Positions 25,038-30,035 of a stretch of DNA of 64,000 nt are shown here, in pieces. The notes below the pieces were generated by a model. That model was not told where the DNA came from, searched no databases, and worked only from the letters and a program-made list of their open reading frames with translations. The stretch is from an uncultured Bacilli bacterium. GTDB lineage: Bacteria; Bacillota_I; Bacilli_A; RF39; UBA660. The translations under genes were made by a program, and so were the position numbers. The stretch is from positions 3,836 through 67,835 of the forward strand of contig CALVJD010000002.1 of the NCBI GenBank assembly GCA_944332005.1. Direction: 5' to 3'. Numbering within the stretch: the stretch's first letter is position 1; every line of letters starts with the position of its first letter.

Positions 25038-25111
25038 TGGAGCAGCTGAGGAGAATCGAACTCCCGTCTCAACCTTGGCAAGGTTGCATTCTACCATTAA
25101 ACCACAGCTGC
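25038..25111 (-). tRNA. tRNA-Gly(GCC)
   Basis: Acceptor gcagctg/cagctgc, anticodon loop ttGCCaa, CCA encoded. Confidence 0.8.
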
Positions 25112-25218: not shown

Positions 25219-26184
25219 TTATAATTTATTGTGTAATTTTAATATTGCAACTAACATATCATCACGATATGCAGCAAGAGAAACATCATCATTTCCGATT
25301 TCTCTTGGACGGTTTTTCATGGCTTCTTCAACACCATCGCGAGCGATTTTGGCAAATTCTGGTGGGAATTCTTTCCAATCAGCCATATCATTTAACCATA
25401 GGGTAATAGAATCATGTAAGTGATTCATAAGTCCATCGACACCACCTTCGCCACCGCCTAATTGAAAGACTAAAGATGGTCCCATAATACCCCAACGAAT
25501 TCCAGGACCGAAGGTAACTGCTTTGTCTGCATCTTCGATTGTACAAACACCACGCATAACAAGTTCACAAACTTCGCGATAAAGTGCCATTTGTAGGCGG
25601 TTGCAAATAAATCCTAGTGCTTCTTTTTGTAGAACAACTGGTTCTTTTCCTACCGAAATATAGAATTCTTTGGCAAGTTGAACATTTTCTTCAGTTGTTT
25701 TTTCTCCTTTTGTAATTTCGATGAGAGGAATTAAATGAGGTGGATTGTAAGGATGTCCACCTATAAAACGTTCTGGATATTTTGCAACTTTTGCAATTTC
25801 GGTAATCAGTAATCCAGAAGTAGAACTTGCAATAATGGCATCTTTATCGGCATATTCTTCAATTTCTTTTACGATTTCATGTTTTACATCATAATGCTCT
25901 GGACCTGATTCTTGTATAAAAAGAGCACCTGTAACTGCTTCTTCCATCGAAGTGGTATAATGAATTCGATTTTCGATTTCTTCTCTTTCTTGTTCTGAGA
26001 TGATATTGTTTTTAATCAATAATTCAAGACTAGTATGAACTCTCATTTTAGCGAGATCTAATGCTTCCTGATTGATATCGTATAAACTAACCTCCAACTT
26101 TTTCAAAGCAAAGCTTACTGCAAAACTATAACCGATGACACCTGATCCAACACAGGCAACTTTTTTAATATCTGATACTTTCAT
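25219..26184 (-). CDS. 3-hydroxyacyl-CoA dehydrogenase family protein (NAD-binding)
   Basis: VACVGSGVIG Rossmann motif and an HBD-like C-terminal domain. The start at 26184 follows the RBS aaggagg. Confidence 0.75.
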   Translation of the reverse strand: MKVSDIKKVACVGSGVIGYSFAVSFALKKLEVSLYDINQEALDLAKMRVHTSLELLIKNNIISEQEREEIENRIHYTTSMEEAVTGALFIQESGPEHYDVKHEIVKEIEEYADKDAIIASSTSGLLITEIAKVAKYPERFIGGHPYNPPHLIPLIEITKGEKTTEENVQLAKEFYISVGKEPVVLQKEALGFICNRLQMALYREVCELVMRGVCTIEDADKAVTFGPGIRWGIMGPSLVFQLGGGEGGVDGLMNHLHDSITLWLNDMADWKEFPPEFAKIARDGVEEAMKNRPREIGNDDVSLAAYRDDMLVAILKLHNKL

Positions 26185-26487
26185 ATATCCTCCTTTATTT
26201 TCCAATTATATTGTACCTCTTTTTCGACATAAAATACTCTTTTTTTTATTTGATTGTCATAAGTTGACATAAAATTGGGATAGGCGTTTAATAGTTAATT
26301 TTCTGTTGGACACTTATTTCAGTTTCATCTAAAAAAGTAGGTACAAATGGAAATATTTTAGTTTATATTATGTTTTTGTAATAAAATGAAGATATATGTT
26401 TCTGATATGTGTTTTTACGACCAATATTATTAATAGTGAGGCATTTTGGTCTACATGAAGGAGATGGATGTTATATGCCAGAAGGTA

Positions 26488-26511
26488 TAAAAAAAGAGAT
26501 TTTGTATCTCT
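26488..26511 (-). terminator. rho-independent terminator of the minus-strand islet operon
   Basis: agagat-acaaa-atctct hairpin followed by T8 on the minus strand. Confidence 0.5.
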
Positions 26512-26634
26512 TGTATATCTAATGGAGCCACAGTCGAGCCTATCTCGAACTTTTTCTCAAAAGAATATTGATAAATATCAAATCTATTAATATTTTACTA
26601 AATTACAATAAAAATATCAATGCTATATATCTGA

Positions 26635-27756
26635 TTATTTAAAATTTTTGAGGTTTAAATATTTATGATAAGTTTTTGCAAAATTATACCTTATTGAATA
26701 AAAAAGCTGATAATGTGGATTAATAGTACTGTTAAAATCAGATTCTTTAATGGATTTATATATATCATTTTCAATTGTTTCGCTATTAACAAAGGTAAAT
26801 ATTTCTTCTAAATTTTTATCAATATAATAGAAACATAGTATAGTTTTTTCTGAATGTTTTACTCGTTCTTCATATCTTTCATTAAAATTAATATTAGTAG
26901 GTAATACATAGCTTTCCCAAACAACAAAAATGCCAATAATATGTTCTCTTTCTATTTGCGTAGATATGGTATTTATTTTTCTATAAAATGTGGCCTTTGA
27001 TTCAGCTAAAAAGGGATTTATTTTAAAAGTTTTATCTTTATAAAATATAAACATAGTAGGCATTATATGTTGTTTTTGTAATTTATAAATAAGAATATGA
27101 CATGAAATGAAATCTTTAAACATATCTTTTAAATTATTACTTTGGAAAAAGTTATTATTTATTGGAACTTTTTCTTCTTTTTTATTTATATTATTATCAT
27201 TAAATCCTAACATTTTTGCTCTAGATTTAGGCTCTAGTAAATTGGTGCTTGGTATATATTTATAATCTCTCTCTAAACATAATTCATATATGCATATTTC
27301 TTTAATTTTTTCAGAAATTTTTAATTCCATATTTTCACATTTAAGACAGTTAGTATTGGTGGATAATTTAAATTGTGTAAGAAAACTATTCATATCGGCA
27401 ACTCCATGTTTTATTAAATCAATAATATTTATTTCTTTACCATTTTCAGTAAATCTAATTATAATAGACAAATATATTTCTGGTGCTTTAAATGTTTTTA
27501 GTTTCTCTTTAATTTCGGTTTCTAATTGTTTTGCATTTTCCCAATTTTCATAAGTATAGTTATGTTTTATAATTTCATTACTATTTCCATAAAAATATAC
27601 ATTCACCATTATTTGCTTATTTAATTTAAAGGGATTTTGATGAATTACTTCAACTCTCTTATCGTTAAGCCATTTTAATTCATCACTGATTAAATATTGA
27701 TCTCTTAATTGCTTATATATTTTCTTATTTTTGGAAGAATCTAATGATTTTTGCAA
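26635..27756 (-). pseudogene. hypothetical protein, very AT-rich, no recognisable domain; apparently the 3' part of a gene split by a frameshift in an A7/T7 tract
   Basis: The 373-aa frame starts only at a TTG with no RBS. The upstream 45-aa ORF fuses in-frame if the T7 run at 27783-27789 gains one T or loses two. Confidence 0.5.
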
Positions 27757-27764
27757 AACAAATG

Positions 27765-27902
27765 TTATATTTCTAAATTCAGAAAAAAACTATCAATGGA
27801 AGAAACTACATCGCAAAATTCTTCTGCTTTTATAAAGTCAGATAAGTTTTTTAAAGCACTATAAAATTTTTGATATGACGTACACATTATACAATTACTC
27901 AT
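27765..27902 (-). CDS. 45-aa Cys-containing ORF, probably the N-terminal part of the frameshifted downstream gene
   Basis: Strong RBS ggaggtatat upstream of the ATG. It ends 8 nt before the TTG of the 373-aa frame. Confidence 0.4.
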   Translation of the reverse strand: MSNCIMCTSYQKFYSALKNLSDFIKAEEFCDVVSSIDSFFLNLEI

Positions 27903-27973
27903 ATATACCTCCTCATTGTTTTCTCAGTATTATAGCATAAAAAAACAAAATTTTCGGTTTTGTTTTTAGAATA

Positions 27974-29071
27974 TTATATATAATTTATTTTTTCAGCTTT
28001 TAAAATAGCATCAATATATTCTATTGTGTAATCACGAATAAATTTCTTTGGAGATAAAACCCAAGAATTTATTTCATTATACAATCTTTCGAATCCGATT
28101 TCTCCATATTGATTATAAAATTCAGAATAATTAATTAGGCCTTCTTTTAAATATTCTCTGTACGCTTCATTTCCCACATACATTCTTTTTGACAATTTAC
28201 TTCCTGACCAATCTAATATTGTTGGAGTATAAATGATACTTGGAACATCATGTATTTTCATTTTTAACAATGGTTCCATATAAACTCGTAAAGGCCACAT
28301 TCCAGACCAATCGCCACCATCAACAATAACATTTAACGAATTATCAATTTTATCTTGTTTTAATAAATATAAAATTTTTACTAAATAACGCAACGGTACA
28401 TTCATATCAAAATTGTCATTACTATTTTTGTCGATGTTTACTTCAAAATTGCCATGTTTTGGACAAAAAGAATTTATAATAATTTTATTGTCTACAGCTT
28501 TAATTTTTGTATTAGAAAGATGTTTTTCTGTTAAGCCACATTTAGGGCATGGGACTCTTAATCTAATTTCGCCATTTTTTGGATCTAAAGTGTATCTTAA
28601 TTCTTTTTCGTTCTGTATTACTTCATAAAGTGCTTCTTTTACTAATGGATTTTTTTGATAATCATAAAAAAATAATACCTCATAATTTATTTTGTCTTTT
28701 TTACTTAATTTGTCTAATAACTCTTTAAAATAGGGGAAAAATTTTTCTTTAATTGTTAATCCATTATTATCTTTAACAATATTTAAATTTTTGTAATACT
28801 TAATTCCATCTATCATAAATTCTTCGCCAGTAACACTTTCTAAAAGCTCAACTTTTATTTTTACTGGAACATTATAATATTTTTTGAAATGTTTAGCTAA
28901 TGCAAAGGCTGAAATAAAATTGGTTAGAGTACCGACATGTGGGTAACTATTAACCTGTGCTGAAAGCCATAAAACAATTTCCTTTTTTCCGTCCATTTTG
29001 TTTTTTATAATTTCTGCTAAATCATCTATTATATAATTCATTCCTGCTAATGGATAATATACATTTTTCAT
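27974..29071 (-). CDS. truncated class I aminoacyl-tRNA-synthetase-like protein (class I LysRS-like catalytic core, no anticodon-binding domain)
   Basis: HIGH-like NSYPHVGT, KMSKS-like GSKLSKR, and a Zn knuckle CPKC..27 aa..CPKH. It is 365 aa, against ~520 aa for class I LysRS. Strong RBS gaggagg. Confidence 0.55.
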   Translation of the reverse strand: MKNVYYPLAGMNYIIDDLAEIIKNKMDGKKEIVLWLSAQVNSYPHVGTLTNFISAFALAKHFKKYYNVPVKIKVELLESVTGEEFMIDGIKYYKNLNIVKDNNGLTIKEKFFPYFKELLDKLSKKDKINYEVLFFYDYQKNPLVKEALYEVIQNEKELRYTLDPKNGEIRLRVPCPKCGLTEKHLSNTKIKAVDNKIIINSFCPKHGNFEVNIDKNSNDNFDMNVPLRYLVKILYLLKQDKIDNSLNVIVDGGDWSGMWPLRVYMEPLLKMKIHDVPSIIYTPTILDWSGSKLSKRMYVGNEAYREYLKEGLINYSEFYNQYGEIGFERLYNEINSWVLSPKKFIRDYTIEYIDAILKAEKINYI

Positions 29072-29649
29072 TTTGACCTCCTCGTTATGTATCCCGCTTT
29101 AATTATATCATATTTCTTATTTTTGGTATATTCAACATCTTTTAACTTAAATTCTTCTGTCATTTCCATTTCCTTACAGGTCATACAAAAATTGTCTTCA
29201 TATAATTTTGAGTGAGAATTGATATATTCTTTATTATATAATTCTTGTTTTTCTAAATACTCATATACTGCTGGAAAATTTTGAATATTCAAATAACATT
29301 GTGGGACATTAAAATGACTATCAATTTCTTTTATTTTATTTATACTTATTGGTTGTTTAAATAATTGTAGAGATTCTATAGGAATAGCAAATTTTTCTCC
29401 ATTTTTAAGGCAATTTTTAATTCTATCATATATAATAGAATCTTTATTATAATCGTCTATTTTTTCAGCTGTATGTATTGGTTTTCCCAATTCCATTATG
29501 CCTACTACTTCTTGTACAGGGGCGCTTAAATAAAGATATGCTGTCGTTGGTTTATCACAAAATCTTTTTCTGTATTCATACATTTTCATGTTATATAATA
29601 TTGGCCTAAAAAATTCAGGTCTAAAACTCAAAAAAATTTTTCTTTTCAT
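29068..29649 (-). CDS. ASCH/PUA-like domain protein
   Basis: N-terminal KIFLSFRPEFFRPILYNMKMYEYRKR pattern is typical of ASCH domains. Its stop overlaps the downstream ATG by 4 nt (ATGA). RBS ggaggt. Confidence 0.5.
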   Translation of the reverse strand: MKRKIFLSFRPEFFRPILYNMKMYEYRKRFCDKPTTAYLYLSAPVQEVVGIMELGKPIHTAEKIDDYNKDSIIYDRIKNCLKNGEKFAIPIESLQLFKQPISINKIKEIDSHFNVPQCYLNIQNFPAVYEYLEKQELYNKEYINSHSKLYEDNFCMTCKEMEMTEEFKLKDVEYTKNKKYDIIKAGYITRRSK

Positions 29650-29696
29650 TTATTTTACCTCCAATCAACAAAAATGCAATTTAAGTTTCTGCTTAA

Positions 29697-29730
29697 ATTA
29701 TAACATATAAATACTAAATTATAAAATTAG
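29697..29730 (-). promoter_or_regulatory. candidate promoter of the islet operon (extended -10 TGtTATAAT on the minus strand)
   Basis: Extended -10 read on the minus strand with a weak -35. It lies about 45 nt upstream of the first gene. Confidence 0.35.
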
Positions 29731-29892
29731 CGTGTGATATATTTTAATGTTATTTAAAAGCAAAATGTTATTTATTTTTTAAACTTTTCTGCATTTCACA
29801 AATAACATCAATTTCTTTTTCAAAGTATCATTAATTGGGTTTTCTTTCTTAATAACATTTACCATTAATAAATCACTCTCACTTTCTTAAAC

Positions 29893-29961: not shown

Positions 29962-30035
29962 TGGAGCGGATGATGAGAATCGAACTCACGTAGTCAGCTT
30001 GGAAGGCTGAGGTTCTACCATTAAACTACATCCGC
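29962..30035 (-). tRNA. tRNA-Gly(TCC)
   Basis: Acceptor gcggatg/catccgc, anticodon loop ctTCCaa, CCA encoded. Confidence 0.8.

Follow-up and report, generated by a model that had tools for sequence, protein, structure and literature searches.

The window analyzed here, a 64,000-nucleotide (nt) stretch of contig CALVJD010000002.1 from an uncultured Bacilli bacterium, carries a pair of overlapping genes on its minus strand. The upstream gene encodes a 193-amino acid (aa) protein with an ASCH fold, and the downstream gene encodes a 365-aa protein, called the ligase below, whose closest resemblance is to class-I lysyl-tRNA synthetase (LysRS) in its catalytic core. The genes and the signals around them are as follows.

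29068 to 29649, minus strand: gene for the ASCH-fold protein, 193 aa, ATG start, from a six-frame list of open reading frames (ORFs)
27974 to 29071, minus strand: gene for the class-I LysRS-like ligase core, 365 aa, ATG start, from the same list
29068 to 29071, minus strand: ATGA stop/start overlap, read from the sequence as 'tcat' on the plus strand
29077 to 29083, minus strand: GAGGAGG Shine-Dalgarno sequence, the ribosome-binding site (RBS) of the ligase gene, within the 3' end of the ASCH gene
29658 to 29662, minus strand: GGAGG RBS of the ASCH gene, from the sequence
29697 to 29725, minus strand: promoter-like site of the bicistron (TTTATA, 17 nt, TATAAT, with TG before the -10), from a consensus scan and the sequence
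27941 to 27967, minus strand: weak A/U-rich hairpin and then a U run, a possible terminator, from RNA folding

The TGA stop codon of the ASCH gene and the ATG of the ligase gene have 4 nt in common. A preliminary description of this DNA, made from the letters alone, had reported this overlap, and both the ORF coordinates and the bases at 29068-29071 agree with it. The same description took the overlap to imply stoichiometric co-expression, which does not follow from an ATGA alone; the ligase gene has a strong RBS of its own, the GAGGAGG that lies 5 nt before its ATG. Ahead of the ASCH gene is a TGnTATAAT-type -10 element (29697-29705), a putative promoter that is a consensus match only. Directly after the ligase stop codon, the transcript would fold into a hairpin of -4.7 kcal/mol (z -2.2 against shuffles), which a consensus terminator scan did not call, and past the hairpin lies a fresh ATG at 27902, preceded by a TGnTATAAT-like -10 element and a GAGGAGG site. 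Because the two genes have their own promoter-like site and RBS and are followed by a possible terminator and then by fresh signals, they look like a self-contained bicistron, and their co-transcription is likely. Overlaps of 4 nt are among the commonest junctions in bacterial operons, so the overlap alone is not beyond chance. What does exceed chance is the conservation of the linkage, rather than the ATGA itself.

Residues ~1-124 of the 193-aa protein correspond to a GKER-type ASCH barrel and residues ~125-190 to a conserved helical extension. An AlphaFold2 (AF2) model built on 42 homologues reached a predicted local distance difference test (pLDDT) score of 95.2. When this model was searched with Foldseek, the top matches in the Protein Data Bank (PDB) were chains of ZmASCH from Zymomonas mobilis (E 2e-8, target TM score 0.68-0.70), followed by the McrB N-domain, EOLA1, the TRIP4 ASCH domain and YTH, which are PUA-like proteins. 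Model and search agree on a five-stranded PUA-like beta-barrel. Residues 3-119 also match ZmASCH (5GUQ/5Y6C) in a phmmer search (E 4e-4), and the protein matches the phage family phrog_3136 (1e-15). The ASCH family itself, PF04266, gave no match at E ≤ 1 in a Pfam scan, and neither Pfam nor NCBIfam scans returned anything above threshold for this protein, the ligase or a third ORF downstream. The partner ASCHs of other clades score 15-23 bits against PF04266, around its cut-off of 21.2, and gp29 of the Streptomyces phage Picard reaches 42.6 bits.

The signature octapeptide of the family, G-x-K-x-x-E/T-x-R, is present in the window as N20-M-K22-M-Y-E25-Y-R27, with G20 in most homologues. We compared 68 partner ASCHs from all clades and found K22, E25 and R27 in every one that covers those columns. 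P116 is kept in 68/68, Y40 in 65, and Y or F at position 119 in 66/68, the window protein having Y119. Judged by its predicted structure, the 193-aa protein is a true ASCH/PUA-like protein, as had been proposed from the letters; the unrelated fold that was named there as the alternative is contradicted by the confident model and its ZmASCH match. GKER-type ASCH proteins cannot hydrolyze N4-acetylcytidine, whether free or in tRNA, without their Lys-Glu dyad (bioRxiv 10.64898/2026.02.27.708502), and PUA-like domains are often RNA-binding (PMC7641849). The ASCH core has a basic pI of 9.2, and the ligase family lies close to neutrality; such a charge allows a nucleic-acid ligand but does not require one.

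The preliminary description had called the downstream gene aminoacyl-tRNA synthetase (aaRS)-like, and its fold and motifs bear this out. The AF2 model of the ligase (pLDDT 92.3), which ends after short helices, has the class-I LysRS 1IRX as its top Foldseek match (E 1.8e-10, probability 1.00), with GluRS, BshC, MetRS and CysRS next, placing a class-I Rossmann-fold catalytic domain in the protein. A HIGH-like motif (P44-H45-V-G47-T48) and a KMSKS-like motif (G290-S-K292-L-S294-K295-R) accompany this domain, along with a Cys3His knuckle (C175-x-x-C178 ... C203-x-x-H206). We judged invariance on two alignments of 42 and 17 divergent homologues (A2 and A3), in which Q39, N41, H45, G47, C175, C178, C203, H206, G252, D254, G290, K292 and K295 do not vary. 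The simplest reading of the invariant HIGH-like and KMSKS-like signatures is that the ligase would form an acyl-adenylate.

Consistent with this assignment, the ligase matches phrog_35625, a 'tRNA synthetase' family (3.5e-24). GluRS models match it weakly, with G-S-K-L-S-K-R aligned opposite KMSKS, and TIGR00464, with 15.7 bits, stays far below its cut-off of 290. The window ligase has no Pfam match, and its distant relatives match PF01921, the class-I LysRS family, marginally, the best being P0225 with 24.1 bits against a cut-off of 27 (P and L numbers denote proteins and loci). The C-terminal anticodon-binding domain is absent, and the protein has 365 aa compared to 507-508 residues in the 1IRX chains. 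The 365-aa protein is thus a synthetase-like catalytic core rather than a synthetase. The family to which it belongs is a rare one: at E ≤ 1e-3, a search of 1.84 billion representatives yields 554 clusters.

We examined whether the two genes stay together with a ligase-anchored scan of 80 loci, one genome per species, in which ASCH genes were sought by tblastn with the window ASCH. An ASCH gene directly adjoins the ligase gene on the same strand in 49 of the 80 (27 downstream of the ligase and 22 upstream), and 16 more have one in the same operon, 15 at 4.4 kb upstream and one at 2 kb downstream. Linkage thus extends to 65/80 loci. The 15 loci with no tblastn match are mostly contig ends, ligase fragments or pseudogenes, or places where a more divergent ASCH is present. 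The order of the genes is not fixed: ASCH precedes the ligase in the window's clade, follows it in most others, and faces it convergently in one abundant lineage. Junctions range from -4 to +12 nt in the ASCH-upstream clade (25 loci) and from -53 to +59 nt in the opposite order, and the -4 junction recurs in L011-L013, L032, L008-L010 and the Streptomyces phage and prophage copies.

The two domains are also found joined. Locus L070 has a 501-aa ORF carrying both, P0346 is a fused protein with both, and the fused protein P0398 has a canonical PF04266 domain at residues 383-481. On two actinobacterial plasmids (L101, L102), both parts lie within one stop-free frame. Three plasmid matches labelled 'ASCH domain-containing protein' were rejected as annotated fusions, since the gene tables give a separate ASCH coding sequence. 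Additionally, the identities of the ASCH and ligase partners to the window proteins rise and fall together (r = 0.97 over 67 loci, uncorrected for phylogeny).

The hosts of the pair are diverse. They include metagenome-assembled genomes (MAGs) of gut Bacilli and Clostridia, Thermoactinomycetaceae and Mollicutes-like gut Bacilli; the candidate phyla radiation (CPR) lineages WWE3, Saccharibacteria and Peribacteria; DPANN and other archaea; the temperate Streptomyces phage Picard, where gp28 and gp29 overlap by 4 nt, and a Streptomyces prophage; and actinobacterial plasmids as well as two mobilizable Macrococcus plasmids. Two or three paralogous ligase copies can occur within one MAG. Because the linkage holds across bacteria, archaea, plasmids and phages despite changes of order, and because the partners fuse and diverge in step, we conclude that ASCH and the ligase are functionally coupled. 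A search of other genomes for the pair or its fusion had been suggested in the preliminary description, and its outcome supports the coupling proposed there.

ARAGORN located no dedicated tRNA near the pair in 60 loci, save insertion-site tRNAs of varying identity, and a dedicated tRNA partner was rejected on this absence. We found no published description of an ASCH/LysRS-like pair in the searchable literature, and the family of the window's ligase is not covered in the 2010 paper by Aravind on class-I aaRS-like proteins.

Outside the window, the pair often belongs to larger operons whose companions are free-nucleotide enzymes together with tailoring and export functions (MFS, DMT or ABC). 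About twenty MAGs of uncultured gut Bacilli share a ten-gene operon (L036-L053 and L065; for example L042:1979-9426) encoding a NUDIX protein, a Tmk-like kinase, ASCH, a methyltransferase, an AlaDH/PNT-family dehydrogenase, a second methyltransferase, an NNMT-like methyltransferase, an AlkZ-like glycosylase, the ligase and a pyruvoyl protein of the S-adenosylmethionine (AdoMet) decarboxylase family. Reduced versions occur in Thermoactinomycetaceae and a Patescibacteria genome. The AdoMet decarboxylase is fused to the ligase in the metagenomic proteins P0221 and P0226. This operon looks like an undescribed nucleotide-derived pathway. One MAG, BRZ_ID bin45, contains both the ten-gene operon (L043) and a cassette of the window's type (L013).

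A twelve-gene operon (L059, L061, L068 and L075; for example L075:43-11067) includes two DegT aminotransferases, a radical SAM protein, an APH kinase, a nucleoside 2-deoxyribosyltransferase-like protein, the ligase, MazG, an ABC-F protein and ASCH. Its 2-deoxyribosyltransferase-like, radical SAM and DegT proteins recall cytosyl peptidyl-nucleoside clusters such as that of blasticidin. Likewise, the set of NUDIX or MazG, methyltransferases, ligase, kinase and ABC-F recalls the puromycin and A201A pathways, a resemblance only. The operon also encodes a 699-aa protein with a faint GNAT-like match. Two of 150 neighbor proteins match the PADLOC viperin model (1e-22), and radical SAM proteins like that of the twelve-gene operon are the likely candidates.

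Smaller contexts show the same kinds of companions. Two cultured strains carry the system on mobilizable plasmids, Macrococcoides bohemicum p19Msa0383-2 (L098, 6545-10459) and Macrococcus sp. CCM 2573 pML2573_1 (L099, 4134-8048). In both, two ATP-grasp ligases stand with the ligase and a partner-type ASCH (E 1e-35 to the profile), adjoined by a divergent MFS transporter and helix-turn-helix (HTH) regulators. At 16 and 24 kb, these plasmids offer a compact, experimentally tractable version of the system. On Pantoea sp. JZ29 plasmid pJZ29-01 (L100, 5950-11044), the ligase shares its operon with an IMPase-family protein and a SAM methyltransferase on one side and a TIGR00730/LOG-family protein, a DMT transporter and a HAM1-type NTP pyrophosphatase on the other. 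Among these, it alone is a candidate for forming a bond. No ASCH gene lies within 8 kb; the operon has the LOG-like protein instead, and a nucleotide-hydrolase-like protein takes ASCH's usual place. In a very common gut lineage, a 71%-identical copy sits between a nucleoside phosphorylase and a HAD/UMPH-1-like nucleotidase, and in one clade a peptidase-C26/GATase hydrolase follows the pair. The neighboring enzymes point at least as much to a small-molecule acceptor as to a polymer. The preliminary description suggested that a nucleic-acid-targeting module delivers substrate to the ligase. We favor its idea of ASCH as the acceptor handler; its polymeric cargo is no better favored than a small molecule by neighbors that act on free nucleotides and nucleosides, tailor and export.

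A separate arrangement is seen in actinobacterial phages, prophages and plasmids (phage Picard, L091, 4855-7376; L092/L093, 6908-9469; L101-L102), where two more conserved small genes precede the pair. One of them encodes an HATPase_c_2/'ATP-binding protein' of anti-sigma-kinase type. This suggests a four-gene unit in these elements.

From the folds, motifs, coupling and contexts observed, we infer ATP use, the kind of donor and acceptor, and a biological role. We propose, with a probability of roughly 0.5, that the pair is a two-subunit aminoacyl ligase in which the LysRS-like core activates an amino acid and ASCH handles a nucleoside- or nucleotide-type acceptor. The 365-aa core would bind ATP through its HIGH-like and KMSKS-like motifs and activate a carboxylate, most likely that of an amino acid, as an acyl-adenylate. 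Because the anticodon-binding domain is absent, it would not select a tRNA by its anticodon. The donor is possibly a basic amino acid, given the LysRS-like fold and the AlaDH/PNT-family protein in the ten-gene operon, a family that also includes enzymes acting on lysine and ornithine side chains.

ASCH, made from the same transcript, would bind the acceptor, which may be a nucleoside, a nucleotide or of nucleobase type, and either free or possibly at an RNA end. A nucleoside-type acceptor is proposed because ASCH pockets hold cytidine derivatives; since N4-acylated cytidines are the known ligands of the domain that accompanies this synthetase-like acylating enzyme, the acceptor held by ASCH may well be cytidine-like. 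ASCH would present the acceptor's amine or hydroxyl to the activated amino acid, its Lys-Glu dyad either activating the acceptor or trimming wrong products, to yield an aminoacylated nucleoside or nucleotide. Elsewhere, the pair would form the bond at the heart of larger operons, whose other genes tailor the compound and export it. In the window, it would act as a stand-alone, horizontally acquired two-gene cassette, which may make a simple aminoacyl-nucleoside or neutralize an incoming nucleoside-type toxin by aminoacylation.

Several observations weigh against this proposal. A profile of 17 ligase sequences finds no PDB sequence at E ≤ 0.01, and similarity to real synthetases is very weak; because that profile search came back empty, the synthetase assignment depends on the motifs and the Foldseek result. 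Conservation of HIGH and KMSKS is itself no proof of adenylation. The characterized enzymes AcmF, SbzA and BlsK use aminoacyl-tRNA, not ATP and a free amino acid. A polymeric acceptor is quite possible, as ASCH has a basic core and its closest solved relative, 5GUQ, was reported as a ribonuclease of single-stranded RNA. The partnership is also not absolute, with two ASCH-anchored contexts lacking the ligase and one ligase operon, that of the Pantoea plasmid, lacking ASCH. Finally, no tailoring or export gene stands next to the pair in the window.

A broader version of the two-subunit ligase can be entertained more tentatively. In it, the pair would be an unrecognized, widespread maker of aminoacyl-nucleosides or aminoacyl-nucleotides, whether puromycin-like, N4-aminoacyl-cytidine-like or an adduct on RNA or DNA. 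The ASCH pocket would serve as the acceptor site, with its amide hydrolysis run in reverse against an aminoacyl-adenylate, and small mobile cassettes like the window's would be minimal producers of a translation-blocking antimetabolite, directed at competitors or phages, or portable genes for resistance to nucleoside antibiotics, which they would inactivate by aminoacylation.

Non-translational synthetase paralogues, among them GluQRS, TmcAL, MshC, the cyclodipeptide synthases, AcmF, SbzA and BlsK, form a small and well-studied set, and each gave new chemistry. The window ligase represents a further such family, whose ASCH partner looks obligate and for which we found no Pfam, NCBIfam or literature description. 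If the proposed two-subunit ligase is correct, the ASCH domain gains a constructive role, handling an acceptor for a ligase, beside its known hydrolytic one, and study of the pair could bring to light nucleoside-derived metabolites of a new class or an unfamiliar mechanism of resistance. The pair occurs in human and animal gut Bacilli and on mobilizable plasmids of cultured Macrococcus and is therefore amenable to laboratory work.

Among known enzymes, the ligase is closest to class-I LysRS (1IRX, PF01921), with which it shares the Rossmann core, HIGH- and KMSKS-type motifs and a Cys/His knuckle in an insertion. Unlike LysRS, it is ~145 residues shorter, has no anticodon-binding domain, falls below every curated threshold and travels with an ASCH partner as an accessory gene that is often broken. 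GluQRS/YadB is a truncated synthetase paralogue that glutamylates queuosine in tRNA-Asp. TmcAL, which is aaRS-like, makes N4-acetylcytidine at C34 of tRNA-Met from acetate and ATP (bioRxiv 10.64898/2026.02.27.708502). Both have a class-I core without anticodon recognition and transfer an ATP-activated carboxylate to a base or nucleoside rather than to A76, an activity that is proposed for the window ligase. Neither needs a separate ASCH subunit, however, and the window ligase is closer to class-I LysRS in the fold search and has no Pfam match to their families.

Aminoacylation of small nucleoside-type molecules by synthetase-like enzymes is known from AcmF (ascamycin), which is class II, and SbzA (SB-203208), which is IleRS-like; both take the amino acid from aminoacyl-tRNA (PMC12945691). 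BlsK leucylates a blasticidin intermediate as self-protection (PMC12710036). As in these systems, relatives of the window pair sit among exporters, methyltransferases and nucleotide hydrolases; none of AcmF, SbzA and BlsK is reported with an ASCH partner. No BlsK-named protein appears among the matches listed.

On the ASCH side, the nearest characterized proteins are YqfB and the GKER-type ASCH enzymes, which are N4-acylcytidine amidohydrolases, and ZmASCH. The window ASCH has their fold and the G-x-K-x-x-E-x-R octapeptide with its Lys-Glu dyad. It differs in falling below the Pfam ASCH model, in its C-terminal extension of ~65 residues, and in Ser128 of ZmASCH, which is not conserved and aligns with Cys118. 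Unlike the characterized ASCH enzymes, it belongs to a subfamily that co-evolves with a ligase.

The pair lies in a compositionally distinct part of the window, in which we located the following additional features.

26521 to 29821, no strand assigned: low-GC block with the pair and an unrelated third gene, from composition and blastn
29962 to 30035, minus strand: tRNA-Gly(UCC), from ARAGORN, ~310 nt upstream of the pair
25038 to 25111, minus strand: tRNA-Gly(GCC)
26635 to 27756, minus strand: third ORF, 373 aa, listed with a TTG start, from the ORF list

The 3.3-kb block has a GC content of 0.21-0.27 compared to 0.30-0.41 in its flanks, and its genes read from the minus strand, whereas almost all those around them read from the plus strand. 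By blastn, it is 98% identical to blocks in three other gut Bacilli MAGs (L011-L013), whose downstream flanks differ. The position of the window's tRNA-Gly(UCC) is taken in related cassettes by tRNA-Thr(CGU) (L015) or tRNA-Thr(GGU) (L016). In several relatives (L008-L010, L030, L039, L057 and L065), the ligase is broken or truncated beside an intact ASCH. In L008-L010 (6579-6911), it is cut to its first ~103-110 codons with ATA as the start codon, and the upstream ASCH, 78% identical, is intact; because three independent assemblies show the same state, this is a true pseudogene and no assembly error. Elsewhere, the pair is found near recombinases. The accessory region of an S. ossamyceticus prophage has it behind genes for an Eco29kI-like restriction enzyme, a C5 methylase and Vsr, and in phage Picard it lies between the lysis genes and the integrase. 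The low GC content, varying flanks and tRNAs, strand, broken ligases and rarity of the family mark the pair as an accessory, horizontally moving module, not a housekeeping one.

These features bear on a different explanation, in which the pair is a writer and eraser or a toxin-antitoxin-like module. The ligase would aminoacylate a base, for example cytidine at N4, in tRNA, other RNA or DNA, and ASCH would remove or read the adduct; an imbalance, for example on phage infection, would stall translation or mark the DNA. We regard this as rather unlikely. Each half has a precedent, in the GKER-type ASCH that deacylates N4-acetylcytidine in tRNA and in TmcAL as an aaRS-like acylator of N4 of tRNA C34, and the ASCH dyad is universally conserved on a basic core. 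A mobile cassette also suits such a module, with its low-GC islet behind varied tRNAs, adjoining recombinases, a prophage with Eco29kI-type restriction-modification and the Picard position between lysis genes and integrase, as does the repeated breakage of the ligase beside an intact ASCH. ATGA-coupled two-gene units are typical of toxin-antitoxin modules, which consist of two small co-transcribed genes, one toxic and one neutralizing, that are usually unfused. Co-transcription is likely in the window, but the natural fusions are hard to square with antagonists held at a variable ratio. The many biosynthesis-type operons with exporters would likewise be unexpected for a toxin-antitoxin pair.

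A defensive function, toward which the preliminary description leaned in citing PUA-like domains from defense systems, finds one point of contact in the match of ASCH to the PADLOC models of PDC-M11B (1.3e-13). PDC-M11 is an unvalidated candidate system, however, and its A component is absent, as neither the ligase nor the third ORF matches any PDC-M11 model; the match probably reflects the shared ASCH fold only. The census of 150 neighbor proteins turned up scattered restriction-modification genes, Fic and recombinases with no dominant defense family, and a reading of the loci as defense islands is unsupported by it. The pair is found at one locus in 2.9 million viral contigs of IMG/VR and in three phage records of INPHARED, all from Streptomyces phages and comprising two GenBank entries plus a RefSeq duplicate of one of them. 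These counts led us to reject an element that is mainly phage-borne, and the single viral locus also speaks against a writer and eraser.

A second explanation keeps the chemistry of the two-subunit ligase and changes the donor to aminoacyl-tRNA, making the ligase a transferase like BlsK, SbzA or AcmF, with ASCH helping to hold the tRNA 3' end or a small-molecule acceptor. In its favor are the dependence of these aaRS-like tailoring enzymes on aminoacyl-tRNA, the RNA binding common among PUA-like domains and the resemblance of the twelve-gene operon to cytosyl peptidyl-nucleoside clusters. BlsK has a [3Fe-4S] cluster and the ligase family has three invariant cysteines and one histidine, a parallel that is suggestive only. 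Family-wide invariance of the HIGH-like and KMSKS-like motifs would be unexpected if ATP were unused, and the 60 loci contain no dedicated tRNA gene. We consider this donor improbable.

A third possibility, which we think very unlikely, is a split, unconventional LysRS whose core charges tRNA while ASCH replaces the missing tRNA-binding domain, for instance as a drug-insensitive back-up or self-immunity synthetase. Class-I LysRS is the best structural match of the ligase, PUA-like domains bind RNA, resistant synthetase copies are known as self-immunity in clusters for synthetase inhibitors, and exporters stand next to the pair on some plasmids. However, the anticodon-binding domain is absent, and the divergence is extreme, with no Pfam or NCBIfam match above threshold and no PDB match by profile. 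The ligase gene is also frequently pseudogenized, occurs in two or three paralogues within one MAG, is fused in places to an AdoMet decarboxylase gene and is rare among the 1.84 billion representatives. Lastly, that the adjacency is meaningless, two unrelated genes overlapping by 4 nt as bacterial operon genes very commonly do, is refuted by linkage in 65/80 loci over phyla and domains with changing order, by the fusions and by the correlated divergence of the partners.

The third gene of the low-GC block was rejected as part of the system: no relatives but the closest have it, a promoter-like site and an RBS of its own precede it, and it is interrupted. Its protein has no family match. In the interrupted gene (26635-27902), a 44-codon ORF opens at the ATG at 27902 and is stopped by a TAA immediately ahead of the TTG listed as the start of the 373-aa ORF; L012 and L013 have a single 421-aa ORF there, 94% identical.

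The two tRNA-Gly genes (GCC and UCC) bracket 25219-29649; this part of the window has no other minus-strand block of any size, and GC skew turns negative across it. In the three related MAGs, an element of ~5.5 kb (about 1740-7250 in L011-L013) separates the ASCH cassette from the tRNA-Gly. A gene on this element encodes a 636-aa recombinase-family protein, a serine recombinase by eye only. The two blastn matches of L011-L013 to the window have 24 bp in common (29798-29821), a candidate for a duplicated attachment site.

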